Shown in pieces: positions 6,721-62,960 of a DNA stretch of 64,000 nt (the stretch's first letter is position 1; each line of letters begins with the position of its first letter). A model generated the notes under the pieces. It saw only the letters and a program-made list of their open reading frames with translations. It was not told where the DNA came from and searched no databases. The position numbers and the translations under genes were made by a program. Source of the DNA: Moniliella sp. 'wahieum' (taxonomy: Eukaryota); the NCBI GenBank assembly GCA_003971905.1, contig RSEE01000004.1, positions 1,054,001 to 1,118,000 of the forward strand, in the 5' to 3' direction.

Positions 6721-7275
6721 GGGCGCGAGCGCAGCAGCAAAAGCACAAGGAACGGCGGGCGTAGGCGGGCGTAGGCGTAGGCGGAGCGTCAAGGAAAACG
6801 CGCCAAAAAGAAAAAAATCGGGGACAATCACCTGACCAGGCCAAGAGGAGGAGTAGGGTTACGCCCAAGCGCGGCTGGACAAGCGGCTGAAGGCAGGGGT
6901 GGGGGTGGGCTGGAGGTGGGGCCGAGCCAGCGGCGGCGGCTCGTCTAAATATAAGCAGTCCACGCAGCGCATGTGCTGCCGCAGCCTGCCGCCAGAGCGC
7001 GCTCCCGGCAGCTGCGCTCAGGCGCTCCGTTGACGTTCAGAACGCTGAGCTCAGCCGCAAAATTCAGCTGAATGCCCCCGTACCTGGTGCCCGCTCAGCC
7101 GATGATGCGTGATGCATGATAGGTGTTCACTGTGCTGCCGTGCTGACCCTCGCCCGTTCGCCCCGTGCCTGGCGACCGAGCTGTGTGCGGCCGTACAGCG
7201 CCAGTCTTTGCCTTGTTATTTTTCCCACCTCGGCCTGGTCTGCTCTCTGCCCCCCCGCGCGGGCTGGAAGCACGC

Positions 7276-7306
7276 CATGCATGATGCATGATGCATGATT
7301 AATGAT
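7276..7306. repeat. Tandem self-complementary heptamer array (CATGATG)n
   Basis: CATGATG at 7280 and 7287, CATGATT at 7294; nearby 12-bp palindromes GCTGAGCTCAGC (7044) and ATTCAGCTGAAT (7062). Confidence 0.9.
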
Positions 7307-7967
7307 TGGTTGACCCGGAGGCTGCCCTGTGTCCGGTGACCCGGCCTGATCGAGCCCGCCAGCGGAATTTTTGGCGCCCAGGCTACTGCGGAGTCGGTGC
7401 GGAATGTGGACAGCGCAAGTGTCGTTTGGAATTTGAAATGTGGCCGCGCCTCAAGCTCTGTCCCCACTTCATCACCTGCCCCACTTGTCTCTCAGCGCAT
7501 GTGCCAACTACACTGCTCCACCTACTTCACCTCGGCTTCGCTCGGCGCTAAGCGCCGGCACTCGTGTCTGCCTGTATTCTCATATCCATCCATGCCCACC
7601 CATGAGAGAAATATTCAATCGTGAGGTCGGCATGGAAGGGGAACTTGGCCAGATGTGGGCGCGCCAATGCCGCTGTGTCCCGAGTATAGCCTCAGTTCCA
7701 ACGCCCTCCCCCTCTCCTCCACTGGCATCACCTCTGTCCCAAGCATGCACGGCGCGCGCGGTTCATCGTGGTATAGTTTAAAGCGGACGGAACAGGCTGT
7801 AGGCGCAGGGTGAAGGCGGCGCAGGGCAGAGAAAAGGGGGGTGCTAGGGCGGGTGGACGGCCGGCAAAAAATCAGGGGTATAGTGGAGCTGGTCGGCACA
7901 GGCGCGGGAGCGAGGGCGTGAAAGAAAGATGCCGGGGAGGGGCGGGATGAGGGGCACACCACTATTC

Positions 7968-9636
7968 TCAAGGCATCCACAGCTTCACTGTCAAGTCCAC
8001 CGACCCTGTCGCGACCACATTGACCGTCTTGCGCGTGTCAGTGGCGCGGGTTAGGACGCCATTCCCAATCCCATTTCCATTCCTTGTGTCCGCAGGTCCA
8101 TCGGACGACGCCCCCTCGACCCGGGCGCGGCCCCAGGCAACGGTAGTGACAAAGTGGTTGTGCGCTTCGAGGGTACGAGAGGTGCGGCCCGAGGCCAGGT
8201 CCCACACCTTGAGCGTCTTGTCATCCGACACGGACAGAAGAAATTTCCCGTTGGGCGCAAAGACCAGTCCTCGGACCCAATTGTCGTGCCCAACGAGCGT
8301 TTTGAGACAGGCGCCACTGCGCGTATCCCACAAACGGATCGTTGTGTCCCGACTGCCGGTAGCGGCGAACAGACCCGGTTGTCGCTCCTTGCTCTGTCGA
8401 TGGATTTGCGACGTTAGTATGCTGTTCCGCTCTCCCCCGAGCCGACTCGTTGGGAGGCAGGGGTACGTACCGAAGGGGAGCCAGTCAGTTCAAACAGCGC
8501 TGGGTACGCTGCCAGTGGTGCAAAGACGGCAACCTCGACCACATGCTCGTGGCCACGCAGCTCATTCTTGGTCTCGCCCGTATTGGGGTCCCAGGTCCGA
8601 GCGGTTTGGTCGTTGGAGGCACTGATCATCATCTTCCCGTCTTCGGATGGACTGATCCAGCGTACCCACTCCGCATGACCCGTCAAGGTGCGGACACAGA
8701 AGCCACTGGCCACTTCCCATATCCGAATCGTCCGATCTCGACTGGCACTGGCCAGGTACGTGTCCCCTGGTAAAAACTTCACACTGGAAATGCTGTGGTC
8801 GTGGCCATAGAGTGTCTTGACCGTCTTCCACTCGTTGGTCGTGTCCCAAAGGCGGATGGTCAGGTCAGAGGAACAAGATGCTGGAGCAGACAACAGAACA
8901 GCATCAGTCAGTCTCTCTCGTGTTGGGCCATGAGGAGGAAACGAAAAGAGTGTGTATGGGAGGTAGGCACTCACCTAGAAAGGTGCCCTTCGAATCAAAA
9001 TCAACGTCCTGCACAGCCTTGGTGTGACCCTTGAGCGTGCGCTCAAATTCGCCGGTTTCCCAATCCCATACTTTGATCGAAGAGTCCTCAGAGGCAGAAA
9101 CTAGGAGGCTAAAGACTGGGTGGAAGGTAACCGAGTCACTGGGTTGCGGTGGCTGGCCAGCGTGTACCTGGCCGGTATGCGGGGAGTCCAGTCCACTTGG
9201 GACGCGGAACGGCGCGTGCCAGCGGGGGTCGAGGCAAGCTCCTCGGTCAAGAGGCGTTCTTGGCTTCAGCTCCATGATCTGCGGACATACAGGATGCAAT
9301 GCGGTTAGAAGCAAGGCCGCAGAGGCGCATCCAGGCCCAAGCAGGCGCACGACGCACCTTCTTTTGCAGCCTAATCACACTTGTCCATTTCTTTTCGAGT
9401 AGGCCAGCGTACTTGGCTTTGGAGTCGACGACAAACTCTTCCTGCTCCGTCTCCTTGGCGAGGGCGTCAAAGGATGCGGTGAGGCCATTGGACTGGAAGT
9501 AGTCGAGGATGGAGTGGTTGCTGCGTGCCACAAGAGGAGTCAGATCTCAGAACGATGAGCGGGGAGGGAGGCGGACAAAGGCAGGCTTCACCCACAGTTC
9601 TTCTTTCTGCCGCTCGGAGAGCAGCGTTGGCGGCAT
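7968..9636 (-). CDS. PAC1: LIS1/NudF/Pac1 dynein regulator (LisH + WD40), multi-exon
   Basis: [14 protein letters not shown] / [24 protein letters not shown] / [40 protein letters not shown] / [27 protein letters not shown] / [28 protein letters not shown]. Confidence 0.97.
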
Positions 9637-10451
9637 GGCGGCGAGGTGAACGGAGAGGGAGTGCGCCACACTCGCTGGGAGGAGGGGTAGGGGAGGGGGG
9701 CTAGAGAGGGCGCGGCGGGTGCAGGTGACGGGAGGCAGCGGTGGGGCGTCGGTGCAGTTGGACTGTGATTGATTAATGATTGGCCAGCCCAGAGGAAACC
9801 AACACAATGCAACCTGCGCCGGCCACACACTGGCGCTGCCAGCCAGACCCCGCGCTGCGCCGCCTCTCCTGGCCCGCACACGCGAGTATGGCGCGCGTTG
9901 GGCAGGCGGGCGAGCCTCAGGCGCTCACCCCTGCCTGTCTGCCTTCGCCTGTCTGCCTCACCACTTTTTAGCCTGGGCGCTCCCTCCGGCCTCGGGCTTT
10001 CACGCAGGGTTCGTGCGCCATCCAGATGCTGGCTGGGCTGCCTACGCGCATCCGTCGCTGGCCTGCGTGCCTCCCCCGCCATGCCGTTCCCCCTGCGACG
10101 GTGCGGGGGCTGCTGGCTGCCTGGGGTTCTCTCCACCCCCGCCTCTGGATCTGGCCGACGGGACTACTAGTTCGTTCATGCTATCCCTGCTGTTTCTCCC
10201 CCATGGCCCCTGCAGCCGCGTGGTGACGTAATTCCGCCTGAAATCGGTTCCGTCCGGTTGGATTTCAATGGGCAGCTGGCCAGGTCGAAGCAAGCAAGCA
10301 GTAAAATTAAAACAGCTTCGCGGGCCACGCGTTGCTTGCGTCGGTGCTGGCTGGTGGTGCGTCTCTGTACTTAATCGTCTCTTCCCGCGCAGCCTCACCT
10401 CGCCCGCCGCCCGCCGCCCCTTCCCTTTCCCCCTTCCCCTTTCTATCCGCC

Positions 10452-12521: not shown

Positions 12522-12821
12522 AGTGGCGGGGAGCGGCATGGCAACAAAAGGGGGAGACAGGGCGGTGGTGCACGAGAAAGACCCAAGCCCAGCTGGCAAC
12601 GAAGGACGTCGGTGGCGTTCTTTCTAGCGACGTGATATGGGACAGGTTGCACACAAGATGTGATCCATGCCGTCACTGTAGTCGGTGATCACCGTGGCCT
12701 GGCGCCGACGGTGCGGAAGGATGCGCTTTCGGAGTTTAAAAAAAGGCGGTAATTGTGTTGGATAACCCTACTCGTCCACGCATGCTGAGTAGTTGCTGAG
12801 CGGTGACTCATCGATCATGGC

Positions 12822-13017
12822 TGACCGGTGACCGGTGACCGATTAATTTTAATTGCCTAGGCCCTCTTACACGCTTCCTTACGTAACAGTGTCGCGTTGT
12901 ACGATCTATGATGCATGATGCATGATGCATGATGCCTGGCGCACCCCCAAAGCAGGACGGGGCGTCACGCGTCACGCGTCACCATGTCACAAGTCACAGC
13001 GGCGTCACGCGTCACGT
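12822..13017. repeat. Cluster of different tandem self-complementary heptamers
   Basis: (GGTGACC)2 at 12827; (CATGATG)3 at 12914; (CGTCACG)2+ at 12963 and 13003. Confidence 0.9.
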
Positions 13018-15149: not shown

Positions 15150-16601
15150 GGAGTGAAGATACCAGGTGTCAGCCAGGCCAGTGCAAAAGCATACGCGCAT
15201 GCTGGATGGCCGGAGAAAGGAGCGACGCACAGGGCATGGCCACCAAGCGGGGGGCGTGCTGGAGGGCACACGGGCAGAGCAAAACACAGCGCGCGCACGC
15301 CAACCAGGCCGAGTGCCGATACGACGATGCGGCGATGGGGACTGGCGCGCGCGTGGGTGCTGGTGCCCCTGCTGATGCTGGTGGGAACGCTGGTGGGGGG
15401 CAAAAGAGGGGCAGGTGGAGCGGATCGTGTGGCCAAATGACAAGGGCACAAATACTGGCCCACGTACACGTACAGAAGGTCATGCATTAGCGTAGCGCCA
15501 TTAATGCCATTAGTACATTAGCCCAGTCCGAACCCAGCGAGCGCCTCGCACGCTCTCTGACCAAGACAGCCCCCAAGGCCAGCGTAGGAAGGAGAGACGC
15601 CGAAGCGCCCCGTGCGACCCCTGTCCTGCTGTCCCAGACACACAGCTGCACCGACCATCGATCATCGCTCGCCAGATGACGAGGGCGCTGGCGCTGGGCA
15701 GCCTCCAGGCTGCAAGGTCTCAAGCCTGCCCCAGCTCCCCCGGCCACGCAGGCGCCATGCGATGGGCTTGAAGCGTTAAGCGTGAGAAGCTCGAGGGCGT
15801 GCGGCTGCCGTGGAGCCGATCTGGGGCGCACGCACAGGCGCAGTGTGCGACTTTCCCAGCTACCCCCCCCCCCCGCCCTGGTTGCGGCGCACGGCGGCTG
15901 TGGCCTGGTGGGGCCTGGTGGGGCCCGGTGTGTGGCCCGGGCACCAGTCCCACTCGATTCGCCCTTTGCCCACGCGCCCTATCCATGCCATTCCACACGG
16001 CTGGTTGCTACGCCTAGGCCACACGCCTCTCTTGTCCCGCAATTTCTCCTTCAAAGCCTGCCGGGCCGCCCACCGACTCAGCAACATCATGCATCAGCGG
16101 GCCTGCAACTGCCGCGCTGGGACAGCAGCCGGCTGTACATCGGTAACCGGTAGCTCTTCTGCAATAGATGTGTTAGGGTTGGGTCCTTGGCCTTATCTCT
16201 CCTACTTCCATCCATGTGAGGCCCAGTGGAACGCCAAGCGGGCTCCTGCTGTGTCCCCTTGAAGAGTCCCCTCCAAAAACACAGTCCCGAAAGTTGTCAC
16301 TCTATCCCCTGTCGAGAGGGCTATATGCAATTGTACACCCTTACTATACGAGTCGTATGCGGGCACCAATGAGCCCGAGTAGAGGAGGGAAGAGGAAAGA
16401 CACGACAAGACGTATGCATGCGATTCGACATTACTGAAAGAGGACGGTCCGTCTCCGACGGGTTCTCAAGTATCCACAAAGAAAGGAGCCCATATAGAGA
16501 GGAAACTGGGACAAGGTGGGCGACAGATGTGGGAGGTACGAAAGAGAATGCACTTTCGCACCGTAGAACCTAGTATACGCGGAGGGGGGGGATTGAGAAC
16601 G

Positions 16602-22315: not shown

Positions 22316-22500
22316 CGTCACGTCACGCGTCACGTCGCATATCCTGGATCGTGAAAACCTGTACGCCCTCGGGCCCTCTCATTCTCTCAGGCCTCAGGCT
22401 GAGGCCTCTCAGGCTTGCCTCCGGCCTCGGGCCTCAGCACCTCAGCGGCTGAGGCTCAGGATGAGCGCGCTGAACTCTACTGAGCCAGGCTGAGCCTCGT
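22316..22500. repeat. Dense CTNAG/GTNAC palindrome cluster
   Basis: (CGTCACG)2 at 22321; about ten CTCAG/CTGAG within 22386-22496 (CCTCAGG, GCTGAGG, CCTCAGC, GCTGAGC). Confidence 0.8.
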
Positions 22501-22680
22501 GCGCATCGCAAGAATCAAAACGGCAACACGCCCCCCTCCCCTCCGTGAAATCTGCAAATGCACCACTCTTCCATCGTCTGTAGCGCCTAGGTGATCGATC
22601 GCGCGATGGCGCGTGCGTACATGAAGCTGAAAGTAAAGTGGCGTGGTCAGAGGTCAGAACCACTTGATACTTGAAGCTCT

Positions 22681-22892
22681 TGTTGAGCCAGGTGGCTCGT
22701 GCTTTGGCCAATGACCTAGTTCCGCTGTTTTCCCTCTCTCCTGTTTTCCTCCTTGTCCCGCCGCTTAGTCCCTGATGGCGACTCGCTGCTTGAGGTTCTT
22801 CTGTAGGCATTGAACTGGTTGCTACACTACTACCACCACCAGTCCGATTGCATCGCCCTCGAGGACCATCAGGACTCCAGGTCTCTTCATCA
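22681..22892 (+). mobile_element. Solo LTR, family A (212 bp)
   Basis: Ends TGTTG..TCA; perfect 5-bp TSD GCTCT (22676-22680 and 22893-22897); colinear homolog at 32269-32504. Confidence 0.9.
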
Positions 22893-23201: not shown

Positions 23202-24007
23202 CACTTCAAGCTTCAAACTTCCAGACCTTCAACTCGGCACTTTAGCTAGCGAAGAAATAGCTTCCTGTTGATACATGGCATTACTATAGGAACTCACACA
23301 CCAACAGATGGGCAGGTCGGTTTGGCGCATCATTTGTCCCAGCGCTTAAGCTCTGAATGATATGTGGCTATACAGAGTAGAATACGCATAGCGCCGTCGA
23401 TTATACCGAGAGTACGCGACCTCGGTGAATGCTTCCTTAACTTTATTCGCCTCAGATGCTGTCGTCATCATCTGCATTTGTTAGGTTTGTGGAGTTTTCA
23501 AGCTCGTGGAATTCACCGCCGATGTTGGCGGCGACAGATGGCATCTAAAGATCTAAAATGGAAACAATTTTGGCATCACGATAGTGACTGTGCGCCTAAA
23601 GTGGTCTGACCTATATGAGCAGGCCAGCACCCAACCTCGCCTTCATACGTCCGTCAAGAGCTTCAAGCGCGGGAGTGCCTTTGAAGCCTCACGGACTGCT
23701 GTTACGAATTCATCTCCATCCCCATCTCACCGAGTGGTAGCCTTGGTCCTCGGCTCCAGCGGCCATACACACTCAGCTCTGCTGACTCCAGACAAGCGGC
23801 CAACGCACTGTCAACGGCAGGGAGAATGAGGTGAGGTGCACAGAATACATGCACGGCACACGGTACAAAAGAGGAAGCACTGTAACACGAACGGAGAATC
23901 ACAGCGAGTTGTATTGAAAACTCCATCTAGGCCTTAAAAGACCAGGAAGGGGTGGATACAGATCCTGCACCATGATGGATGGGGGTACATAACCGCGCCA
24001 GGAAAAT

Positions 24008-30089: not shown

Positions 30090-30881
30090 GTGTATATAGC
30101 TCCACCATTCATGCCCATGCTCTCCACCACGCTGCTCCACCACGCTGCTCCACCGTGTTTCTGGCGCACGAAGAGAATTCGGAGCCCGTCAATATCGTCA
30201 ATCCCACTGCCACTTATCTCCATTGTTCGCACACAGCACGCAAGTCTATATAGACGAAGACGCGAGGAGGATACACTATGCCATTATTGTAACACCAAGA
30301 CAGCGATGACTAGCAAAAGATTTTGGTGGGCACTGGAAAAAACTAATACTGAGTATGGAGGAGACGTTCTGCACTGGGATGACTATCTTCATCTTACCTC
30401 GGATATGGGAATGGATGAGAACACTACAGAGTCTCGATCTTCTGTGGCGATTCCCATGTGGTCCCCTAAACGAGTGTGGTACCAAAACAAGCAACACACG
30501 CCGGATGAGCAGAGGTTGGTGTATGAGCAACATTTTTTTCTCAACCTTGCGCTCTGTCAACAATGATATATGGTTCCAATGTAGAGAAGGAGCTGCTTCG
30601 GCTGCTGGGACAGGCAGAATGCGACAAGAACGCCAAGTACCAGGGTACCCAAGAGCCGTTTTCCCTCTAGTTTTGACGACGCGAGGATACTACGCGGCAC
30701 CGAGACAGCAGGCAAGATGCTGCGGCACTGGAAGGATTTGACTACTACCTCTCAATGGAAATGGTTCCTTCCTCGGAAGTCTACCACGTTCATCCGTGTA
30801 CACACGCGCTACCTTGGGTTTGAGAACGGATGGCGGGCACCGGAGGGTCCTGATCTCCTGGCGATTCCACTGGTTCCTTAA
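30090..30881 (+). pseudogene. Coding-like orphan or relic inside the LTR island
   Basis: 158-aa ORF followed by shifted open stretches (EKELLRLLGQAEC.., FDDARILRG..GFENGWRAPEGPDLLAIPLVP*); no confident homology. Confidence 0.3.
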
Positions 30882-31557: not shown

Positions 31558-31826
31558 GCTGACACATCGCTTTTTGCGACAATCGCTGGACACAAGTGCT
31601 GATTCTTTTCCCACGCTTCGTCGATTATATCGATGATCCATTATCGAGCATCCTCCATTGCGGCCCTCGTCAACCCCATCAATGCACCCACTCGAGTAAT
31701 AGTCTGGAGGGGCGTCAGCATATATATATGGAAGAGGGTGCAAATGTGTGGTGCTTACGGGGGGTCCTCAGTACTGGCTCTGAATAGTCACTGTCGTAAC
31801 CGTGCGTAACGCGTAACTAGCATAGC

Positions 31827-32504: not shown

Positions 32505-33062
32505 CGTACGTTGAACGTTGAACGTTGACTAATGACTAGCGACTAGTGACTAGTGACTAGCTTGACTGTCGAACGTTGAACGTTAAAGTTCTCAACGCTC
32601 CATGTTCAACCGCTGTTGTGAGGGTTGTTGGGCTTTTTTTGTTTACTTTTTCGACGTGGGACGTTGGAGCTATACCCTTCCAGCTTCCCCGTTTGTTTAC
32701 TCTGTTCCAATCGATGCTACACTTAAGTACGTTTAATCCGTGTAACGTTATGTTGTGTACTGTTTGCTGAGTACTGAGTCTTAGTGCTGAGTACGAGTGT
32801 GCCAAGTGTTCCGCCCGTTGTGCGTTTTGAAGCTTGAAGCGAAGCTTCAAGAAGATTGAAGGGTCCAGGTCTCAGGTTGTTAAATAGCAAGCAGCACTAG
32901 AGTACTAAAAGCTTTAAGTTTTAAGCTTTAAGCTTTAGGCTTCAAGGCCCCGAAATGCTACAGGGCTCTGATAGGCGCTAGACTCCGACTACAAGCATCA
33001 AGCATCATGCATCATGTATCATGCGTCAAGCTTCAAGCTTCAAGCTCTTCAAGCTCTTCAAG
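32505..33062. repeat. Densest cluster of period-7 TNA-centred arrays
   Basis: (GTTGAAC)2 at 32510; AGTGACT-type x4 at 32531; CTTTAAG-type x4 at 32912; in-register run CATCAAG/CATCATG/CTTCAAG at 32996-33044. Confidence 0.9.
32626..32874 (+). mobile_element. Possible degenerate solo LTR related to family A
   Basis: Starts TGTTGGG, ends TCCAGGTCTCA like family A, similar length; TSD imperfect. Confidence 0.4.
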
Positions 33063-33689
33063 CGCCAGAAATGCTTTAAAAGATACCCACGGCAGCCCAC
33101 AGCTTCGCGTTGAGTACGTCGACGACGCTGAACCGTGATGCAGATGCAGCGTTGACGTACAGTGGTGTGAGGCATTGTGGAGGACATTGAGGGTGCGGGG
33201 CGCAGTGTTTTGGCTGCTGCAAGACGTGTACCACGTGAGCGTCAGGCTCATAATGTATGGCAATAAGGCCTAAGGCCACAACAGGCCTAAGATCCAAGGT
33301 TGCCCGAGAGGATTGGACCCTGAGGCCTGAGGCCTTACACAGTCTACACGTAGTATTATATGCGGTCCTCCGTCTCACTGCCGACGACTTCTCATCGGCA
33401 TTTCGGCCTCCGGGAGTTCTCATAACACGTACGGGGTCCGAACTGGACTCCTGCACTGTGGGCTGTGGGACGGATGAGAAGGGTGTGGCGAGCAGTGGGT
33501 GCTGTCAGCAGCTACGAGGCTGTGGGAAGTTTTGGGCGGCATGATGCATGATGGCAATGGACAGGGATGTCGCAAAAAAAGCCCAAAATGCGGAATCCAT
33601 GATGCATTATAGTACTTGTATAGCTGCGTTCGTCCATGTCGAAGCATCAGGCCAAGCGAGCGCGCCGCGGGACAGTGTGATGTGGGACA

Positions 33690-33929
33690 TGTTGGGACCC
33701 GTGGTCCCGTACATAGGCCAAGGCGCCTAATAGATTATCACCCTTTGTCCCTTATTTGACGTCCGAAGCCTTCACCTGTATACTCAGGCTTGTTTGAACC
33801 CCTGTCTCCTCTAGTTGTAACGTAAGGCCTAAGGCTATCACCTGACCACCACCACCGCGACTGCATTGTTCCACATTTCCAGAGGGTCATCGGTCATCGC
33901 CCAACCCCTTGGGTTCCTCCGGTCTTACA
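33690..33929 (+). mobile_element. Solo LTR, diverged relative of family A (240 bp)
   Basis: TGTTG..TTACA; perfect TSD GGACA (33685-33689 and 33930-33934); shares GGCCAA, (ACC)n..GCGA(C/T)TGCAT and a TCC(A)GGTCT end motif with family A. Confidence 0.8.
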
Positions 33930-34727
33930 GGACATGTGCTAGTGACCCCGAATGATTTATGAACGGCCTGAGGCCTCAGGCTTCGGGTTGAGGGGTTGAA
34001 CGTTGAGGCCTCGCATGTCATAAGCCTCAGGCGGGGAATCCTTTCGGAAATCTCGACATCTGTTGTGGAACGGATGTGTATGTAGCCTGCGGAGGGGGAT
34101 GTCAATTGTTGTCAGCGCCATCATGCATGCCAGCTGATCATCACACACCACACATCGCGCTGCTCTATGCGACTCTCCCCCATGTTCTGCTCCTAACGGG
34201 CTCTCTCTTGGAATAGATACATCACCTGCTCTCTTTCTCTTTCTCTCTGTATAGACATTGTCCTCCTTTAAAATTGTCCAGTAGAAAGAAGGTCTATGTT
34301 CAATCCAATGGGCGCCAACAGGTGAGATGCAGAAGGCGATTAATGGACACTATACTTTTTTTCATGACGGAGGGGCCAGTATCCCTTTATAGACAAGTGT
34401 CAAGTAGCTATAGCTGGATTCAAGCTTCAAGGGGGGCAGCTGGGATGGCTGAACGAGCTGGGAGGAAGCGGAGGAAGCGGAGGAAGCGGAGGCTGAAGAC
34501 AGGTTGTTGATGGCGAAAGGTAATGGTGTGCGGGGGCATTTGAAGCGAGCTGTAACCATGTAACCGGTAACCTGGGATGTACCTACGTGGGGGCGTGCGA
34601 TCGTTACCGTTAGAGAAGAGCATGTGCATACTAGTGTGCTCAGAGACACTATAGTCAGCAGCTAGTCAGGTCAGCGGGTCATGACGCGGACGCGTGACGC
34701 GTGACGCGCCAGGCTGGGCGGCTGAGT

Positions 34728-36787: not shown

Positions 36788-37582
36788 CCGATCGGCTGAA
36801 AACAAACCACCCGTTTTGCTCCGAAATGGAGCCTAGCGTGAGCGGCGCGCCGCTCGTCCCTTACGACCTTCTCTTTTCCTCGTTCTTTCAACCTTGTCGC
36901 ACAAACATGGTGCACTGCACCCTCCTATTTCCAATCCTCAACGTTCGTTCCCCTGGAAAATCGCACTACTATGCATAAAGTTCCCTATCCTCCCCATCTC
37001 TCCCCTGTGCGGCAGCTGCATGTCAGCTTCGTGTGCTGATACTGGACTTTGTCAAGTCGTCTTGGGCAAAACTATAGTAACTAGGTGGTAGCGGTATCAG
37101 TGAGCAAGCGGGGGCCCAGGGTGTCGGGGACCGAGGGCCGCACATCAAACGCTGTATCACTGCTGGAGAAGGTGAGCCTGAGGCTTGACGACCTGCAAGG
37201 TGTTGGTGCGTGCGGCGTGTTGCATATGGTGTGGCGCGGAACCCTAGTCCCTCTTGCTAACCCAGCCTCAGCCGCCTTGAGCGCGTTCAGCCGCTCAGCT
37301 TCCGCCTTGAAATGTTTCCATTTACGCGTCGAGAAACTCATCGAAGCGTCTGGCAGGCGCCTTTGTGGCAGCCGACGAAGGATTCGGGGTGGATGGTTGA
37401 CGTCAGTCAGAACTCAGTCTCAGCGACGCTCGTGGAGGCTGGGGACGGGGGCCGCACGCCTGTCACATGTCAAACATCTTCAACCCGGTCCCGTTGCTGG
37501 TGTTTCCCCCCAGCGCACCGCCATCGTCGCCACCACCACCACCTAGACCACCTTCACCAGCCCTTCATTCACGCCCCCCGCC

Positions 37583-44262: not shown

Positions 44263-44600
44263 CCCTCTAAAAGGACTGGCAGACACAGAATGTTGAACGT
44301 GGGAGAAAGAAGAACGATATCCTAACCCAAGTGGTCATACACGCCCCTTGCTTCCTTCTCTTCCCAAGCAACACTCACGAGCCAATGGCGCGAGATACAT
44401 GATGCATGATGCATTGCCCAGTCGTTTCAAGCGAGCGAGATCCAGGCTGGGTATTAAAGATGTGAGCAGGAGACGGAAGTAGAGAAAGGTGTGACAGAGT
44501 AGGATGGACAGTATCAGGATGGATATCATCAGCATGGACGGCATCAGGACGAGCAACATCGATCCTTGAGAAACTCAGGTCCTAGTGATGGCACCCAATC

Positions 44601-45921
44601 CTACTGAGAAGCAGGCTTAATCATGGCTTGCACCCATTCGTACACCCCGAATGATACGCCGATGGACGGGGCAACTTTAAGTAAGTTGGGCCAGAGACCA
44701 CGATACAAACCACGGATGCCATCGTTGCGGATAATGGTAGCAAACACGTCGTACGACGTCTTGTCATTGTACCCCAACTTGGCTTTGCTATCGGGCATAC
44801 CAGCAACTTGCATTCTTCTCCGAAGCACGTCAAGCGGGTATGTGAGCGTCTGGGAAATGCTACCAGCGACCGCACCAGCAACCAGCTTCTCTATCCCGGT
44901 CACACCTTCGTTGGGGGATGCCAAGGCAGCCCACGTTTGGATTACTGAGCCAGCCCATCCGGTTGTTTGCATGGGCGCGCACCGAGTCGCGCACACGCAC
45001 AACCCGCCCTCGAAGGTATTCATAGATGAAGAAGTTGCCTGCAACGTAAGGCGCCACTCCCTGAAAAATGGGTCAGTACCAACATGGGGGAAGAATGACG
45101 AGAAGGGCGGGTGTGGAGAGGTGGAAATACACAAAACGTACCAAACTGACAGGGATGCAGCCGCGGTAGAGGCCGCGCATACCCCCTCTTCACGATACAC
45201 TTTGGCTGTCATGGCCCAGATGCCAGGGATTTTGGGAAGGGGAGCGGCAGAGGTAGCTGCGGTGCCGCCGGCAGCAGCTGCTTGCGACTTTCGTACCATC
45301 AGGTCGGCCGTGGCGATGGAGATGCGAGCACGAACAAGATCTAACGGGTACGTGGACACGACGCTAGCAATGCCAGCCAAGGCGCCTGCGCTGAAGCGAG
45401 CAGTAGGAGAAAGCTGTGTTTGTCCTGGTCGTTGAGGGTCTGGCGTGGCCAAACTGGTTTTGAGTACTTCGTATGTTGCAAATTGGACCGCACTGTAGGG
45501 CGCGATGCGGAGGCAGTTGATCCCGTTGCCCCGGAAGAGGCCTGGGACCCTCTTGCTGGACCATCTTTTTGAGCCCTTGCCACACACCCGAGTAGGAGCC
45601 CTTGGATCGGGCCCCCGTGGCGGGGTTGTGGGGCTGGACCTGCATGATGATCTTGAGGCGCTCCAGGGGGAAACCACGGTGCGACTCGCGGCACCGGCCC
45701 GCCGCACCGCCGGCAATGAAGTAGGACATCAGCTTGTCCTGGTCGAAAGAAGACGTCGGGGGCGAGAAGGTGGTCGGGGCGAAGGCGAGGAGGGAGGGGA
45801 GGCGGAGCGGAAGCGAGGGGGAGGCGACGCGGGGGTCAGTGGGCACCGCCTCAGCGGCGGCGACGCTGACCGGCTGGTCGTGCCACTGGCGCCGGGGCGT
45901 CGTCTCCGTCTCCGGAGGCAT
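44601..45921 (-). CDS. Mitochondrial carrier (SLC25; YPR011C/Leu5-like nucleotide/CoA subgroup)
   Basis: Three Px[DE]xx[KR] repeats: PLERLK, YPLDLVRAR, YPLDVLRRRMQ; GNGINCLRIAPYSAVQF; GLYRGLWPNLLKVAPS. Confidence 0.93.
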
Positions 45922-46856
45922 GGGGGCGGGCGCGAGAAGGAGGGGGTGGAAGAGGCAGAGGAGACACCCCACAGCCGGCCTCTCTGCTCCGGCGGACCGA
46001 GCGGATCGGGTACCCACAGCACCGCGCGAAGAGTATTTTCCGGCTGGCTGGCAGAAGACCCGAGGCGAAAGTTTCAAGTGTCTAGCCTAGGGCCTAGAAG
46101 CCCCAGGGCTGGAGACCGGTGACTGCTGATCGATGATCTCGTGAGTCTCGAGAGCAGCTCAGAGCAGTCACCGGTCCATCACCGATGCTGGCTCCGACGC
46201 CCCGAGCGCCTTCGGGGAGCGCCGGAGCGGACCGGGGAAACGAATACCCGAGTGCCGCGTGCCCATCGCCCCCAGGCACAGCGCCAGTCGCTGGACGCTC
46301 CAGGCGATCTCCTGCCGCCGCTGCGTTCCCATGCTCCCACTGGGTCGGCCGAGCCGATCAATGCGCAGCTTCAGCGCTTAGCCTCAGCGCCAGCGCAGCC
46401 CCATCGCGTGCTTGGCAGGCAGCACGAGGACCAACGCGTTGTAATGTGGAACGCGTACCGCGTATCCCCGTCTCGTACGCCACCAAGTTGGTTGGCCTGC
46501 GCGCTATAAGCGCTCTGTGGAGCCTCAGGGCGTCCACACACATCGACACCCTGTCCATGCGTCAAGCGCCGTCACATGTCACACCATTTGTATCGTCCAG
46601 GCTTGATCATCAATCCATTAGTCCATGCACTGCACCATCATCTGGCAAGGCGGCGCCCAGCCAGGTCGGGCGAATTGTGTTTGTTTCTGCCACCGGCTTC
46701 GGACCGGCCGCTTCTGCCGCTGCGAATGAATGCACCGCGCCTCCATCATTATGAGCACGAGTGACATTGGCTAGTCAGTTCGTCAAGCTCCAACCAACCA
46801 GTCCACCTGCGCTTTCCAACGCAGTCGGTCTTCCCACCCACGTCTCCAGCAGCATT

Positions 46857-54495: not shown

Positions 54496-57003
54496 AGTAC
54501 GGTGTTGCGGTGCATACACACGCAGTAATACGGGCAAAAATGTGGCTCGCACTACGGCGCTGCGCTCTGTGTTGTATATGCTGGTGGCTGCGATGGCGCT
54601 GCTGGGCGGCGGCTACCGTTCTGCCGCCAGAGGGTGGACCCATGAACACGTTGGCCAGTCCATGAAATGCATGGGGGCTCACATGTGGGCTGAGAGCGCG
54701 CTCAGCCTTCGGAGTACTGAGTAGCACTGCTGGCGGATGCCTGTGGGAGGCATACGCATGCTCCAGTATCGTGGCTCCACCTGCCATCGGAGCCATGCGC
54801 GCTCACTGCCCCGTGCCCTGTCTCTTCGCCCCCCCCACCATCTCCCTCCTGCGGCTGTCGCGCGCTGTTGTGGGCAGCGCCACATACCCACACACTTTAT
54901 GTCCTCTCCCCCCTCCACCCCCCAAGGGAAGGATCCGTCGCCTTTCGCTCTTTTTACCGCACCCTGCGGTGCTCCCTTCATAACGTTGTGTATCCTTCCG
55001 GTCGGCAGACGCATTAATGCCATGCGCTAACTCCTCTCCAATAAGCTTCACACTCCTCTCTAACAGAAAATCAGTATGATCTCGTGTGCGCAGCGTGATG
55101 GACGTGATTGGTGTGCTCTCAGATCTCACAGTTGTATGCTCAGAACTCTCGTGATTGATCGAGGAGCGACAAGGGATCTGCAACCCGGGTAGTGTTCACC
55201 GCTGAAGACACGTTGAAGTCTCCGCAATGCCACAGCTGCCACACGGCTACTGAACCTTATCTTTTTATTGCACGTACGAGAGGGGGGCAGAAGTACCTAG
55301 CGTGTGGCAGAGGTCGTTAAGCGTTTGGTTACTGTCCTTGCCCCTGCGCCCAGGCCCCCCCGTATCTGCGCAATACAGACCAGCCTTTTATGACACGTGT
55401 GATCCCATCAGGCGTCCACAACATCCATCAATCCATCAGCACATGCATCTGAATGCCGTCGATGAAGTCGATGATGAGGTTATACTACCCATCAACATGG
55501 CTCTCCAGAATGGAAAAACAAAAGGGACCAGCGCTTCAGGATATAATACGCCAGAGGCTGTGCGCATAGGGCGATATCCAACACCCTGTTCGACCACACA
55601 CAGTTAATAGCCCCGCTCTTCTAGGTCAGAGGCACACATGCACATGTGTGGCTGGTATACCCCACGAACCATCCTGGCGAAACTTTTGAAGTATTGAGCA
55701 GCAGTATATCGCGGAGGTGGCAACTTTTCTCCACGTACTTTCGCAAGTGACAGTACCACCATTGCAGCACGAGAGATTGAGAATATTAAGACGCAGCACA
55801 AAAGCAATCCAAGCCAGCACGTGGCTGCCGCTGTGTAGGTACGCGCTTCGGCAAAATCGGGCTTATACTGGGCTGACGACCTCAAAAGAACTGGAGAGAG
55901 GCAGTGGGGCATCTAAAACACGTCAAAAGGGATTGCAGCGAAGTACAGCGGAGAAAGAGTATATAGGTGTGGGTGAGGCGTAGTTGAGCACTAAGTGTGT
56001 GGTTGTCAGCAGCGCGCTCGAGACGGGCATTGGATGACAAATGGCGTGTATATGCAGATCGGCGGGTGCGCTTTCAGGGCGCGAAGGCGAGGGGGTGGCA
56101 AGTGGGGGGGGTAGTAACGGGCAAGGGGCAATCGATACGCAAGGCGTGTTGGCAAAACACGAGAGCAAGGGAGCGAGCAAATGAATGTTGCCCGGCTGGG
56201 GGCTGGCACCCTTGGCGATGACGGATCCCGCGTGACTAGACTGCCCAACACTCGCCCCCTGTCGGGCGGGGTGGCGCGCACGAGGCAGTGAGGGATTAGG
56301 AGTGGGTGGATGCGCAGGGGGCAAGACAGTGGCGCGGTGGGACACGGTGGGCCGGGCTTTGGCTTGCCGGCTGGTGCCTGTTCGCGTTGCCGCCGCCTCA
56401 CCGGCTCACCGGTAGGTCACCGCCCGTGTTTGGACGGGAGATGCTCGGAGAAGGCGCTCGCACGCGGACCTGGGAGGGAGGGGAAGGGGAGGGCCGGTGG
56501 AGTCGGGGGGCGGGGGGGGGGCGGAGAGGGGGTTCATGTTACAGCCCAGACGACGACCACCATCGCTCGGAATGGGGGCGGGAGGCATGCTGGGCGTGCT
56601 GGGGCTCGGCGCATAGCGCTGCACCTGCTCTCTGGCGGGCGCACACGCTGGGCCAGGCTGGCGAGGCGCGGGCGGGGCTGACTAAGGGACCGTGCACAGG
56701 GCCAGTGTGCTGTGGCCGGCGCGGCGGCGGGCAGGGGTGGCGGGGGCGAGGGCGGGTGGCAGCGGCGTCTCTTTCACCTCTCCGTCGAGTCGGACGCGCC
56801 TGCTTGCTCGCCTGGGCTGGAGAACCTACGCATCGGCGTCTGCGTGTCTGCCCCGCACCGCCCGCATCCCCGATCCCCGCGCCGCAGCCGCCGCCGCCGA
56901 CGGTGTTGTTGTGCTGTGCTGTGCTGTGCTGCTGCCTGCCCCTCGGCTGCACGCTCTCGGCTGCCTCGCCCCCCGCCCGCCCCTGCATCGCTGCGTGCCT
57001 GCC

Positions 57004-60000
57004 ATGCCGGCTGCGGCGCGCCCCGCCGCGCTGGGCTCGGCTGTGCCCGTGCTGAGCCTGGCGCAGCAGGACACCCTCCGCGCCCAGCTCGCCGCCTTCC
57101 GCCACGCGGCCCCCCACCCCGACCAGCCCCTCCCGCCCGCCCTCCTCCACGCCGCCCACGCGCCCCCCGACCGCGTCTTCGTCGAGGCCAGCATCGCCCT
57201 CGCCAGCCTCCTGCCCCCCGCCCGCCCCCTCCGCCCCTCCATCCGCACCGACACCTGCACCTGCACTGCATCTGTGCCTGCGTCTGTGCCAGCATCTGTA
57301 CCTGCTCCCTGCACCCGCATCCGCCCCCGCACCACCCATCCCCCCCGCGGCCTCCCCCTCCGCCCGCCCCCGCCCCCTCCCCCGCTGCACCCTCCGCCAC
57401 CCCCCCCGCCCGGCGCTCGCCACGCTCCTCAAGGCTAACCCCCGCGTCGCGCCGTACAACTCCTATGTCCATCCCGACGCGCTTTTCCGCGATCGCATCG
57501 CCTCTGCCCTCCCCGACAACTACGTGGCAAAGGATGTGCAACGCATCCTTCTTCCCTCGCTCTGGCCTACGGGGCTCGACGCCGATGCAGGGTGCCCACG
57601 CCCAACCCGCACGCCGCCGTGCTGCCCGATGGCATGACTGGCTTCAACGGAAGTTCCCTCGTTGCTGCCCACTCGGCCCAACTGAGGCGCGTCGTCGCCC
57701 AGCGTCTTGCCGAGCTCGATGCCCAGCTGTCTGCGTTGGATTCAGACCATCCGGGCCGCATCCCCTTGCTCGTGGACAGAACGCGTTGCAGCTGGTTCCG
57801 GTCCAGCGTCAGGCCGTGCTCAGATGGTAGGTACCTTCGGCCAGATGGCGTCCCAGCCTGCCGACCGTTTCGCCTTCCGCAGCTTCTTCCGCCCCACCCT
57901 GTCCGACACGCGGCAGCTGGACCGACTGGAGCGGGCCCAGCGCGCCGAGCGGCAACTCAAGGCCCAAGCACGGCAACAAGCGTCCCTGGAGCGTCTTTGC
58001 GCCCATGGTCGCGACTTGCTCTGGCCATCGTACAGCCCAGTTGAGCCAAGGCCGACAGTCCAAGAACCGGTTCGCTCCATGCCGATGCGGAACGGGAAGA
58101 GCAGAAGCGGATCGAGCGAATCAGCCGGGAGCGTCTGCAGGCCCTGCGTGCCGACGATGAAGAAGCGTACCTCAAGCTCATCGACACGGCCAAGGACACG
58201 CGTATTGCTCATTTGCTCAAGCAGACAGACAAGTACTTGGATCGCTGGCCAAGGCTGTGCCGCAACAACAGAACGACAGCATGGACCCTCGGAGCAATCG
58301 CTGGGCGGTGCCGAGGCTACGACGACCGGTGGGCCGGTGGATGAGTCGACGTTTGGGGCTTCACGTCCGGCAGACGAGGCGGACGATACGAGCAAGCTCG
58401 ACTTTTTCTCCATCGCGCATCGGATTCAAAGAGCCCATTCTGCGCCAGCCTGAGATTCTGTGGGCGGGCAGTTGAAGGAATATCAGATCAAGGGGCTGCA
58501 GTGGATGGTGTCCTGTACAACAACCGTCTCAATGGCATTCGCATGATGAGATGGGGTTGGGCAAGACGATTCAAACTATCAGCTTGATTACCTATTTGAT
58601 CGAGACCAAGCAGCAACAGGCGCCCTATATTGGTGATTGTACCCCTCTCGACCTTGACCAACTGGGTCAAGAGTTCCGCAAATGGGCGCCGAGCGTGAAT
58701 GGTCGTTTACAATGGCTCCCCTCCCGCGCGCAAGCACTGGCCCAGACTGTTCTAAGCAGGCAACTGGCAGGTCCTCCTGACAACTATGAGTTTATCATCA
58801 AGGACAAGAATCTGCGGTAAATCGCTGGTTCACATGATCATTGATGAGGGGCATCGCATGCATGAAGAACGCTTCCCCAAGTGTCCGTCACGCTTACCCA
58901 ACATTACACCAGCCGTTATCGGTTGCTTTGAACGGGTACGCCGACTGCAAAATAGTTTGCCCGAGCTGTGGGCTCTGCTTAACTTGTCCTGCCGCATCTT
59001 CAACTCAGTTCAAAGCTTCGACGAGTGGTTCAACACACCCTTTGCCAATGCCGGTGGACACGATGGGAATGACATCCACCTGAATGAGGAGGAGCAACTG
59101 CTAATCATCAAGCGTTTGCACAAGGTGCTCAGACCCTTCCTGCTCCGGCGTCTCAAGAAGGATGTTGCATCTGAACTTCCAGCAAGGTGGAGAAGGTGAT
59201 CAGGTGTCGCAAATCGGTGCTGCAAGCGAGGTTGTACAACCAGATGACCAAGCACAAGACCCTCTTTATCAACGGAGCCCATGATAGCAGCAGTAAGGCC
59301 GGTCACGGCTTGGCGGGCCTTCAAAATGCGTTGATGCAGCTACGCAAGATCTGCAACCACCCCTACATGTTTCCTGAAGTTGAAGACGCCATCAACCCGA
59401 CCCATGAGACGGGTCCGGACATTTACCGTGTGGCTGGCAAATTTGAGCTGTTGGATCGGGTTTTGCCCAAACTAAAAGCAACAGTCATCGGGTAGGTGCC
59501 CTCTCTCTTTCTCCCTGTTGGCTGAACTGTATATTAACTGATTTCCATTCTTCTTCAGGTGCTGGTATTCTTCAGATGACTCGTGCATGGATATTATCGA
59601 GGACTTTTTGCGATTGCGAGCCTGACTTCCCTCGTCTCGACGGTACCGTACCACCCGACCCGAAGACGATCTCGTCTTCTGACTGAGTTTAAACCAGCCC
59701 AACTCACCATACTTTATGTTCATTCTCTCCACTCGTGCGGAGGGTTGGGTCTTACTTGCAATCCGCTGACCGTGATCATCTTTGATTCGGATTGGAACCC
59801 GCATCAGATTTGCAAGCGCAAGACCGTGCGCATCGGATTGGGCAGACGCTCGAGGTACGCATTTTGCGCTTAATCACCGAGAAGAGTGTGGAGGAGAAGA
59901 TCTTGGAGATTGCCCATCGCAAGCTCGACATGGATGGCAAGGTGATCCAGGGGTAAGTTTGACAACAATGCCAGCAACGAAGAGCGGGACACGTTGTTGC

Positions 60001-61213
60001 GTGCCATGCTCGAGTCGGCCGAGATGAGGACGACGCTGGAGACGCGACGATTGGCGACGAAGAGTTGAATCAGATCATTGCGCGGTCGGAGGAGGAAAAA
60101 GGGATCTTTGCCAAATGGACGCTGAGCGGCGTGAAGCGGACCAGGCGTGGTGGCAAGCGACGGAGCACAAGGGTAGCTTCCCTGCGGACCGGCATGATCA
60201 CCGAGCCCGAGCTGCCCGATATGTTCCAGACCTGGTACGAAGAGAAGGCGCTTGCGGCACAGGAAGCGGAAAAGACGCGAGTCTTGGACGAGGCGCCAGC
60301 GTCGCGACGAACGCGCAACACTACCATCCGCTACAATGACGATCTGACCGAGGACCAATTTTGAATGCGATTGAGAACGACCAAGATCCCGAGGAGTTGG
60401 CCGCCGCAAAGAGGGCACGAAGCGAAAAGCGGCGTGCCAACGCTGCGGCTCGTGCTGCTCTTGCGACCAGCGACGACGAAGTTCAGTGGCGCCGGTCAAG
60501 CGCGGCCGAGGCCGTCCGCCCAAGACGGCACGTACCACGCCCGAGCCCCGGCGTAGGACCTCGGGACGAGAGGACGATGACGAGATGCCGCACGCAAACG
60601 CCGGCGAGCGTCTCCCTCGGACTCGTTGGCTTCCCCTGCGGCCACGACGAGTGGCGGGGGAGGCGGCGGCACATCGCAAAAAGGCGGCCAGGCAGCCGAG
60701 CTGGCACGGCGGGACGCGTGGCGCAAGTGCTGGCCCCCTGCTACAAGGCAGTGGAACAGCTGACAGAACCCGAGACGGGCCGAAAACGGTGTTGCTATTC
60801 ATTGATTTGCCCAACAAACACGAGTATCCCGACTACCGGGTTCTGATCCGCCAACCGATCTGTCTCAAGACAATCAAGCGTCGGCTGGATCGAAGGACGT
60901 ACCGCAATGCGGCCACGTGCCGCGCCGAGATTCGGTTGATGTGCGACAATGCGCGCACGTACAACCAAGAAGGTCCTTTGTGTGGGTGGATGCCAACGAG
61001 ATTGAACACGCGTTCAACGAGGTGTATGAGAAGACGGTGCCGCTCGACTTGAGGGGGGACGAGCCGGTGCCAGCGCCGATTTTAAATCCGGCCCGGGACC
61101 CCGTCACGCCGGCCTCGCCCATGTGGAGGGGGAGGCAGACGGATCGGCTTCCTTGCCCCCCCCCAAACTGTCCCCCGGTATGGACCTGCCGCCCTTGCCC
61201 AGCGCAACGCTGA
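57004..61213 (+). CDS. SNF2/STH1(Snf21)-family chromatin remodeling ATPase (QLQ, HSA, ATPase, SnAC, bromodomain); heavily frameshifted
   Basis: [129 protein letters not shown]. Confidence 0.95.
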
Positions 61214-61879
61214 CGAGGTGAGCCTGGGGCCGCCACCCACTGGAGATGCAGGTGCTAGAACCCGAGGATGACACGGCGGTGTTGTAACCTGCTTCGTCTG
61301 CCGTTTTTGCATCGCGTCTGGCGTCCTCCGTACCCTTGGTCCCCTCCCCCCGTGACAAGACGGGTGGCCCCAAGGGGCCCCGCCCCTTTCGATGGAGGTG
61401 GGGGGTGGGGGAGAGCTGGTAGAGGCGTTCCGTTGCGCATTACTGTACTGGTCACCCTGTGTAGGATCTCTTGCTATTCCACTTTTGTTCCCTCTGATCC
61501 ACATCCGTTGATCTTCGTCTCGGTTGTCTCGGTTATCCGTCAGGATCCGCGCATGTCGAGGTCAGATTCCGTCCCGTACGCGAGTGTTTGTAGTGCTTTT
61601 GTCCCGTGCCTGCCCCGCGGCGCCCCTACCGAAAAAAAAAGCTCATGCCGCAGGGATGCGGAACGATGCGCCTGTCGGTCTCGGAGCTTGGGAGCTTCGG
61701 TTGAAGCGCGCCTGTGGTCGCAAAGCCAGAACAAACCGCCCAGCGCAAGGAGCCATCGAGTGATCGTGCAGCCCATACAGGGCAAAGTGCGTAATCGCAG
61801 CTTGCGGTGAGTACTGTGAGTCATGTGAGTATGGCACGGTGGAGCAGGGTGGAGCATGGTGGGGCACTGGTGGAACGTA

Positions 61880-62960
61880 AGGCTGAGTGAGGCTCAGCGC
61901 TATAGGACTTGTAACCCTAAGGTGACTAGATGACTCTTCCCTGCCCTAGGGACTTTCCTAGTGATCTAGTGATAGGGACGAGGGCCTGAAGAGTACGTGA
62001 GTGATACTGGTGATGTGTGGCCAGCGGGGTAGCAGCCGGTAGAGGGGGGAAGCTAGAGAAGGAGGGCCAGGCCCCAGGGTGCCTTACGTTACGTTACGCC
62101 ACTGCATGTGACGCGTGACGCCTCTGCTGTCTGGTGTTCGGGGCACACTAGGGCACGTTTCCAGCGATCGACCGGGTACAGATATTCATACACTGGCCCT
62201 GCGCCGTCTACGCGTTGCGCTTGAAGCTCGCGTGAAGCTTGAAGCTGGCTTGAAGATCCACTCGACCAATCTCTTTCCCAGGAGCATCATGCATCATTAT
62301 GCCGGTGGGGCGTTCGGTGGAAATGACCCTCTGTAGCAGAGTGGGGGCCCACATCCATCACATGCATCACACACGTCAGATCATCGATTGCTTGTTACAT
62401 GTTACATGTCGCTCTCCCCGCACAGCTGCCAGTCGCTCGTCGCTCGCTCGTCGGGCCTGCACAGGCACCTAATGCCTAACCCTGTCTAACCTAGGGCCTA
62501 ATATCGCGGCAAGCAAGCATTGCAGTAGGATCGACCAGGATCGACCCCTCCGACCCACCCAGTACCCAGTCCTCACCAGCTCGCCCCAGCCACTCTGTAT
62601 CCAATCCCGCAGTACTTCTCCAACGGCGTACTCAGCGTAATACACTCAGCGTTAACCTCACAGCGACTCAGCATTCGGATCTCAGATCTCAAATCGGGCG
62701 AATGTGTCTCATGTCCACATGCCCCCCACTGGAGCCCTATGCGAGCCATAAAATAGGACAGGCGCCCCATGCCGTGCCATTTGCTAGCTGCCAGACTATA
62801 GCCGAACCTATTAGCACGGAGCCAGTTTGCTCCCGACGCCGTCGAATGATTAAGGAGGGTGCTTGCACAGCAGTATACAGAGCATCCCAGTCGCTGATTG
62901 GGTCGAATGATTATCGATTATCTCGATTCATCGATTAATGGGCTCCACAGAGGCCCCTGA
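61880..62960. repeat. Intergenic cluster of TNA-centred heptamers
   Basis: TGTGACG-CGTGACG at about 62107; CTTGAAG-type run 62220-62256; CATCATG at 62285; (TGTTACA)2 at 62393; (GATTATC)2 at 62909. Confidence 0.8.

Follow-up and report, generated by a model that had tools for sequence, protein, structure and literature searches.

The stretch analysed here, called the window below, comprises 64 kb of nuclear DNA from a basidiomycete fungus (Moniliella sp. 'wahieum', contig RSEE01000004.1, positions 1,054,001 to 1,118,000 of the forward strand). Its intergenic DNA carries tandem 7-bp units (heptamers) that are self-complementary around a central TNA and can be written xyTNAy'x', and the origin of these units is the subject of this article. 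The evidence base consists of the window, at least 118 metagenome loci and the literature. The genes of the window are housekeeping genes interrupted by short introns, and include those for Iml2/TTC39, a Sec14-like protein, NF-YB, a LisH-WD40 protein, PAC2, Nfu, COX7a, cytochrome c1, isocitrate lyase, an AN1 zinc-finger protein, ribosomal proteins S9 and L21, a septin and a Snf2-type remodeller. A mitochondrial carrier gene (44604-45728, minus strand) consists of a single exon, and its closest named relatives, at 40-45% identity, belong to the Ustilaginomycotina (Tilletiaria, Kalmanozyma, Acaromyces, Ustilago and Jaminaea). Rfam and tRNA scans of the window returned no matches.

Palindromic heptamers between the genes

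An earlier note on this DNA had listed examples of the heptamers, all of which are present, at or within a few bases of where it had placed them. Scoring of perfect tandem period-7 duplications (at least 14 bp, primitive unit) yielded 47 in the window, 27 of which have a quasi-palindromic rotation; the centre of this rotation is TNA in 26 cases and GNC in one, and never ANT or CNG. Two hundred dinucleotide-preserving shuffles, performed in 1-kb blocks, gave means of 4.4 period-7 duplications, 0.37 quasi-palindromic duplications and 0.045 TNA-centred ones (maximum 1, against 26 in the real sequence). Both the enrichment over shuffled DNA and the preference for TNA over other centres, for which the earlier note had proposed tests, are thus borne out. 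No excess of palindromes is seen at other periods (23/94 at period 5, 0/53 at period 6, 0/7 at period 8 and 0/4 at period 9).

An equivalent description of the unit is a 6-bp palindrome, ANNNNT, plus one base. The four bases between two TNA triplets are palindromic in 59 of the 163 TNA-NNNN-TNA 10-mers (36%), as against 1-7% in the 15 other X-N-Y frames. The central N of the two triplets is the same in 50 of these 59 10-mers, complementary in three and otherwise different in six; it is mostly G (27) or C (22), with T and A accounting for five each (G or C in 49/59). The 4-bp palindromes used are diverse (13 of the 16 possible), TGCA, AGCT, CGCG and GGCC being the commonest.

Stop-free frames of at least 138 codons cover 72% of the window, yet only 10 of 40 clusters lie beneath them. 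Frames with Pfam support, covering 25% of the window, are touched by one of 38 period-7 loci, over 7 bases at the upstream edge, and contain none of the 38 inside their coding segments. The confinement to intergenic DNA, previously judged by eye, therefore holds. Sites lie on either side of genes, upstream and downstream, as well as in a convergent gap (44398), and their distribution does not look promoter-specific. The heptamer observation is confirmed as real and far beyond chance.

There are about 45 sites in the 64 kb. They are listed below with their positions in the window (no strand is assigned to any of them); complete repeats with two bases between them are listed in the next section.

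7102..7307, two arrays; the one at 7277-7307 reads CATGATG x2, CATGATT, AATGATT, a non-palindromic unit between its two palindromised derivatives
9540-9551 and 9770-9781, two single putative footprints of the minimal 12-nt form, period-7 runs
12808..13016, cluster of period-7 arrays upstream of the Nfu-like gene
12822-12841, GGTGACC array in this cluster
12908-12935, CATGATG x4 in this cluster
12962-12982 and 13002-13016, CGTCACG arrays in this cluster
12979, variant with a 5-nt filler in this cluster
16085..16096, single 12-nt putative footprint CATCATG CATCA, period-7 run
22321..22399, CGTCACG x2 and CCTCAGG-type putative footprints, between a small minus-strand gene and an 825-codon frame
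23204-23216, single putative footprint, period-7 run
23544-23557, period-8 variant TCTAAA-GA-TCTAAA, 6 nt kept
29826-29839, GGTTACC GGTAACC with complementary N, upstream of the isocitrate lyase gene
29890-29901, single putative footprint upstream of the same gene
31804..31817, CGTAACG-type putative footprint, period-7 duplication
32508..32590, heterogeneous array: GTTGAAC x2, GTTGACT, AATGACT, AGCGACT, AGTGACT x2 ... GTTGAAC
32767..32946, period-7 arrays of ACTGAGT, CTTGAAG and CTTTAAG
32992..33063, heterogeneous array: CATCAAG, CATCATG x2, TATCATG, CGTCAAG, CTTCAAG x2, then the period-9 form CTTCAAG-CT-CTTCAAG-CT-CTTCAAG
33264..34006, six sites, five of them CCTAAGG (33264 and 33823), CCTGAGG (33319), CATGATG (33539) and GTTGAAC (33995)
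33967, sixth site of this group, CCTGAGG CCTCAGG with complementary N
34419, CTTCAAG, within 34419..34708
34551, period-8 variant TGTAAC-CA-TGTAAC, abutting GGTAACC (34560)
34682-34708, period-7 CGTGACG array with a 1-nt deletion
37461..37472, single putative footprint TGTCACA TGTCA, period-7 run
44398..44414, CATGATG x2.4, in the gap between two convergent genes, some 200 bp downstream from the mitochondrial carrier gene
46127-46138 and 46571-46583, two single putative footprints, period-7 runs
55117..55128, single putative footprint TCTCAGA TCTCA, period-7 run
56397..56410, period-8 variant CTCACC-GG-CTCACC, 6 nt kept
61960-61973, period-8 variant AGTGAT-CT-AGTGAT, 6 nt kept
62108..62922, cluster downstream of the Snf2-like gene: CGTGACG (62108), CTTGAAG-CT-CG-CGTGAAG (62220), CTTGAAG (62233), CATCATG (62284), CATCACA-TG-CATCACA (62356), TGTTACA (62393), TCTCAGA (62678) and GATTATC (62909)

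Five nucleotides separate the start of the array at 32508..32590 from the putative ATG of a small gene on the minus strand. This gene start belongs to a pair of paralogous segments, 22680-22889 (copy A) and 32270-32504 (copy B), which are 83-89% identical and resemble the 5' ends of small minus-strand genes, with an ATG followed by a hydrophobic VVVVV stretch. The heptamer array starts 5 nt upstream of the putative ATG in copy B, and the matching place in copy A holds only irregularly spaced TGA. Next to the putative footprint at 46127, and just upstream of the mitochondrial carrier gene, lies an inverted repeat (46114-46176) whose 31-nt arms are 77% complementary and 1 nt apart.

Anatomy of the units

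An unbiased scan for repeats of 3-9 nt separated by a palindromic filler of 1-4 nt gave an excess at period 7 only; the period is fixed at 7, and periods 8 and 9 are rare. In an 11-mer scan, the second position was A in 74 of 84 matches, and this N-A was preceded by T in 65 of the 74. Pairs of TNA with the same N are enriched when separated by fillers of 4 nt (93 vs 31) or 6 nt (59 vs 31). In the 11-mer scan, the base preceding N-A, where it is not T, is C in six of nine cases, and CGA is the commonest variant of TGA inside arrays (32538, 32568, 34688 and others); this is a TpG/CpG difference, which could stem from CpG deamination or its reverse.

The period-7 identity around TNA cores separated by a 4-bp palindrome has a characteristic length. 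It extends over 10 nt in none of 42 runs, over 11 nt in two, 12 nt in eight, 13 nt in seven and 14 nt in ten. A 3-bp TNA duplication with a 4-nt filler is rejected because it would make 10 nt the commonest length. The 12-nt runs all (8/8) consist of xyTNA-y'x'-xyTNA or its mirror form, in phase (2,0) or (0,2), and just 2 of 33 single-filler sites are made of two full copies in palindromic phase. The two bases between the repeats are the exact reverse complement of the adjacent two bases in 29 of 39 cases of xyTNA-NN-xyTNA and in 36 of 47 cases of TNAcd-NN-TNAcd, where chance would give 1/16; in total, 65 of the 86 period-7 fillers, at 38 loci, carry the predicted dinucleotide. Where neighbouring in-phase units differ at one position, that position is one of the outer two in 25 cases, belongs to the inner junction in four and lies within TNA in six. 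The junction palindrome is thus almost always perfect and the outer dinucleotide is free, a pattern that does not fit the decay of perfect duplications, because such decay predicts equal numbers of inner and outer differences.

Complete 7-bp direct repeats, T being the third and A the fifth base, stand in pairs at five loci with a dinucleotide between the two copies, and in each case this dinucleotide is the reverse complement of one end (the first or last two bases) of the repeat itself:

30187..30202, CGTCAAT-AT-CGTCAAT
33038 and 33047, CTTCAAG-CT-CTTCAAG, two overlapping structures at one locus
61815-61830, TGTGAGT-CA-TGTGAGT
62356, CATCACA-TG-CATCACA
63172..63187, CCTCATC-GG-CCTCATC

Such a filler is found in all six of the TNA-centred 7+2+7 structures at these five loci, as compared with 3 of 41 structures with other centres and a mean of 0.015 in shuffles. 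The 7+2+7 structures stand at one end of a trimming series, in which 5 nt of the trimmed repeat are kept at 65 positions (0.31 in shuffled DNA), 6 nt at four (0.075) and 7 nt at six (0.015); a count on both strands agrees with the single count. The filler dinucleotides at 62220 derive from both sides. Joint bases complementary to the flank, known as P nucleotides, are present in 65 of 86 period-7 fillers and in all six TNA-centred period-9 fillers; a class with a single P nucleotide is not enriched (2/9). The duplication is also of fixed length, with complete 7-bp repeats at five loci and remnants of 5 or 6 nt at about 40 more.

These observations show that the unit is made by a writing process and not merely copied. 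The earlier note had argued as much, and the run lengths, the identity of the fillers and the contrast between junction and outer differences all support it. The 7+2+7 pattern is read as target-site duplication, P nucleotides, target-site duplication. Donor sites mended through flank hairpins after a transposon has left carry precisely this mark, a fixed-length direct duplication with palindromic joint bases templated by the flank.

Probable excision footprints and competing explanations

From this anatomy, which together with its statistics is read directly from the DNA, we infer a transposon, its flank hairpins and a repair route. On balance, the heptamer arrays are probably the excision footprints of a cut-and-paste DNA transposon, or of a small related set, lying outside the window. 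Integration would involve a staggered cut at NNTNANN, in which T and A are symmetric at positions 3 and 5 and N is mostly G or C; cuts 2 nt either side of TNA would give a 7-bp stagger, and 7 bp would be duplicated. On excision, both flanks would be sealed into hairpins, in the manner of Transib/RAG and Mutator-like elements, and the host would open these hairpins about 2 nt off the tip, leaving a 4-nt self-complementary overhang made up of two original bases and two P nucleotides. Repair would usually remove one overhang and keep the other, yielding xyTNA-y'x'-xyTNAcd or its mirror image; 2 nt would thus be trimmed from one copy and two P nucleotides added to the other (5+2+7 = 14 nt), so that the site would grow by 7 bp overall, acquire a 4-bp palindrome where the ends are joined and retain an identical N to the left and right of it. 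Rarer repair events in which the trimmed copy retains 6 bases, or the full 7, would generate periods 8 and 9, and a longer P stretch, of 4 nt, would flip N to its complement, as may have occurred in GGTTACC GGTAACC (29826) and CCTGAGG CCTCAGG (33967).

The palindromised unit xyTNAy'x' would be a fixed point of this process, in that re-insertion and excision would yield a perfect tandem copy, and repeated visits would therefore build arrays, possibly extended by later slippage. A non-palindromic target xyTNAcd could give two products, xyTNAy'x' to its left and d'c'TNAcd to its right. The three heterogeneous arrays (7277, 32510 and 33003) run in the order left-half palindromes, hybrid unit, right-half palindromes (CATCATG, CGTCAAG, CTTCAAG at 33003), and so match the two predicted products. 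The presence of both mirror forms (12 and 19 of 31 sites) is expected because the target is symmetric, and scars would be found only outside coding sequence because a gain of 7 bp shifts the reading frame. Two suggestions of the earlier note survive in modified form here. Hairpin-opening repair at breaks accords with the type of footprint, but the breaks would lie 2 nt either side of TNA rather than at TNA; repeated insertion and excision of a transposon fits best when combined with hairpin opening, but not with a 3-bp TNA target.

Several observations weigh against excision of a transposon. No pair of 7-bp, 8-bp or TNA repeats in the window encloses inverted ends beyond chance-level or array-to-array matches, and no transposase domain is found among its 401 stop-free frames of at least 85 codons, in line with the previous remark that no responsible enzyme gene is visible there; about 45 scars per 64 kb is a high density without any resident copy. 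Identity extends over 14 nt at 10 of 33 single-filler sites, as against about three predicted by random extension from 12 nt. The palindromised edge prefers G before and C after it (G at -1 in 18/31, C at +1 in 17/31), which is accounted for only if an extended target or a repair preference is assumed, and the centre of the junction is GC in 34 of 59 fillers. The hairpin would also have to open at a near-constant distance (the 1-nt P class, at 2/9, is not enriched), and hAT, the best-studied hairpin family, gives odd-centred palindromes, unlike the joints seen here.

A more speculative and rather unlikely version is that the scars are written continuously by an undescribed enzyme system, and not by an ordinary resident transposon. 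The enzyme could be a KDZ-type or other flank-hairpin transposase, or a domesticated one acting in the absence of any mobile element, and the palindromised unit would be both its product and an improved symmetric target, giving rise to self-seeding palindromic heptamer microsatellites.

The main rival kept is element-free break repair, in which a host nuclease or domesticated transposase would make 7-bp staggered breaks at NNTNANN, followed by fill-in and fold-back or hairpin processing. The resulting sequences would be identical to those left by excision, and the very high density of sites would be explained together with the lack of an element or transposase in 64 kb. However, transposase integration is the ordinary source of fixed-length duplications, the window contains no candidate gene, and we know of no host process combining a fixed 7-bp duplication with P nucleotides; this explanation is considered unlikely. 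Replication slippage favoured by hairpins, in which quasi-palindromic heptamers form mini-hairpins and duplicate or expand more readily, as palindromic microsatellites, seems more doubtful still. Arrays do reach four to five perfect copies, and (ATGCATS)n arrays are present in at least 118 metagenome contigs of very different G+C content, but the minimal product of slippage should be two full copies in palindromic phase, seen at 2 of 33 sites, whereas 17 of 33 show identity over 11-13 nt. Under slippage there is no reason to expect outer bases that vary around an intact junction (25 vs 4), nor 7+2+7 structures with non-palindromic repeats, and centres of GNC and CNG, which hairpin stability should favour, were observed in one and none of 27 duplications. 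An unconstrained unit, a minimum of two full copies and uniform decay, the marks of a microsatellite, are all lacking, although slippage may add copies to existing arrays.

Selection of arrays in promoters as sites bound by dimeric DNA-binding proteins, or by some other structure-reading protein, is very improbable. Many clusters do lie upstream of genes, such as those for isocitrate lyase and the Nfu-like protein and small paralogous genes, and some of the hexamers, ACGCGT for example, resemble known fungal motifs. Nevertheless, 13 of the 16 possible 4-bp palindromes share one fixed geometry, site 44398 lies in a convergent 3'-3' gap, a protein cannot read the self-complementarity of an arbitrary sequence in duplex DNA, and the 12-nt minimal form and the 7+2+7 forms would be left without explanation. 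A protein that selects palindromes, as the earlier note had envisaged, becomes superfluous because the palindrome is made from the flank; the view that neither a single factor site nor an ordinary microsatellite can explain the units stands. Least credible of all is an assembly or base-calling artefact, given that the pattern is sequence-specific and avoids coding DNA, that its exact complementarity rules are foreign to sequencing errors, and that weaker examples occur in independently assembled metagenome contigs.

Several other models were dropped. A Tc1-like 3-bp TNA duplication with 4 nt of filler from the transposon ends would need 13 different end dinucleotides, and its minimal run of 10 nt is seen in 0/42. 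A 5-bp duplication with two P nucleotides would require an asymmetric target, and the 7+2+7 sites show a 7-bp repeat. Odd hairpins of the hAT type predict a complementary N, whereas N is the same in 50 cases and complementary in three. Fold-back priming that returns at a self-complementary dinucleotide does not predict a strict period of 7.

Comparison with known transposon systems helps to place the putative element. Classical hAT target duplications are 8 bp long and follow nTnnnnAn (T second, A seventh); Transib elements duplicate 5 bp and Mutator-like elements (MULEs) about 9 bp, the nuclease Artemis opens hairpins about 2 nt off the tip, and excision of mPing is precise as a rule. To our knowledge, tandem heptamers are not known from Transib/RAG or from the MULE Muta1. 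Bacterial tandem units of 7 nt, intergenic and with fold-back potential, are reportedly represented by the GGGAATC-type repeats of Xanthomonas. PIF/Harbinger elements, and IS5-type elements with TNA/TWA targets and 3-bp duplications, resemble the heptamer sites in the symmetric T-N-A at the centre of the target, but the duplicated stretch here is 5-7 bp and never 3 bp, and N is G or C in 49/59, the opposite of TWA. The PIF/Harbinger-like origin put forward earlier is thus contradicted, with identity stopping at TNA in 0/42 runs and extending over the full 7 bp at five loci.

The flank hairpins that hAT, Transib, RAG and Muta1 form are opened by enzymes of the host, and footprints result from end joining (PMC5499845). 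P-nucleotide palindromes are seen in Ac/Ds footprints from budding yeast and Candida albicans; they have an odd number of bases, the central one being the complement of the base that adjoined the element (PMC5873905). The heptamer sites resemble the hAT footprints described for Ac/Ds and Hermes in that target duplications are kept at the empty donor site, with short palindromic P-nucleotide insertions, but differ in having a 7-bp duplication, T and A at positions 3 and 5, an even junction and an unchanged N. Neither an 8-bp class of the classical hAT type (period-8 palindromes 0/7 in the window) nor odd palindromes were found; the joints are even (y'x'xy), with N the same in 50 cases and complementary in three, and the suggested likeness to hAT footprints fails in this respect. 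Transib/RAG coding joints and Muta1 offer another parallel, in that their flanking hairpins have strands of equal length (43 + 43 nt in Muta1) and yield even P-nucleotide palindromes, although the excision of Muta1 in yeast is described as mostly precise (PMC5499845).

Two groups of basidiomycete elements with 7-bp duplications are described in PMC12730594: hAT7, in Pucciniales, and Kyakuja, a member of the KDZ group found across Agaricomycotina, with 5'-CA..TG-3' ends and no inverted repeats. KDZ elements of Cryptococcus are reported to have 8-bp duplications (10.1101/2024.08.15.608186). Both hAT7 and Kyakuja share with the heptamer sites the 7-bp duplication and the host phylum (PMC12730594); a tie of the scars to either of them is a lead rather than a finding. 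The joints expected of hAT7 would be odd-centred, unlike those observed, and no KDZ or hAT domain is present among the 401 frames of at least 85 codons in this window. The mitochondrial palindromic repeats of PMC7218506 are not comparable to the nuclear heptamers. No description of a TNA-centred palindromic heptamer rule was found in the literature (the supplements and figures of PMC12730594 lay outside the search).

Other features, wider occurrence and implications

Perfect tandem repeats that do not follow the heptamer rule are also present, in 2.1-3.2 copies, at 34728-34787 (19-bp unit), 38752-38795 (21 bp), 30122-30154 (13 bp) and 38525-38552 (13 bp). A unit of about 180 bp occurs in two tandem copies (84-93% identical) at 40360-40767, within a long plus-strand frame without a Pfam match that probably encodes a repeat-containing protein. 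The region 56300-57500, with 71% G+C and C-rich and G-rich low-complexity repeats, lies directly upstream of frames with HSA, SNF2, SnAC and bromodomain matches and is probably the low-complexity N-terminal region of the Snf2-type gene.

Metagenomes were scanned with (ATGCATS)3, a three-copy array of the commonest unit, as the seed. Such arrays are present in at least 118 metagenome contigs, with G+C contents of 32-66%, and most of the contigs among the matches listed hold only the seed array and no other palindromic heptamer. Three loci (L024, L037 and L042) have the array in common but not its flanks, and are not orthologous. The 570 kb of listed loci contain 14 non-seed period-7 clusters, seven period-8 forms and three period-9 forms, a rate above that of the window shuffles and far below the density in the window. 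L055 and L069 are the richest in non-seed forms among the matches listed. These two and L080 are eukaryote-like, with introns, several other TNA-centred units and matches to MCM and DUF6593; L069 and L080 have a eukaryotic, fungal appearance. By their frame density, L006 and L050 seem to be prokaryotic; L028, L041 and L059 each hold more than ten copies of the ATGCAT+G/C unit, which may be a widespread microsatellite in its own right.

If the arrays are indeed excision footprints, the scars alone would disclose three properties of a transposon that is out of view: a 7-bp duplication, the target NNTNANN, with N mostly G or C, and a chemistry in which even flank hairpins are opened roughly 2 nt off their tip. 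Basidiomycete elements that duplicate 7 bp are poorly characterised, and for them these properties would amount to a concrete prediction open to testing. Excision footprints would, moreover, be seen to reach a density in intergenic DNA of roughly one every few hundred bases and to develop into palindromic tandem repeats, constituting a birth mechanism for a class of microsatellites and a source of turnover in promoter regions. Were the scars instead written continuously by the undescribed enzyme system considered above, repeat genesis driven by footprints would have been overlooked as a general source of intergenic DNA in basidiomycetes, and possibly in eukaryotes beyond them.

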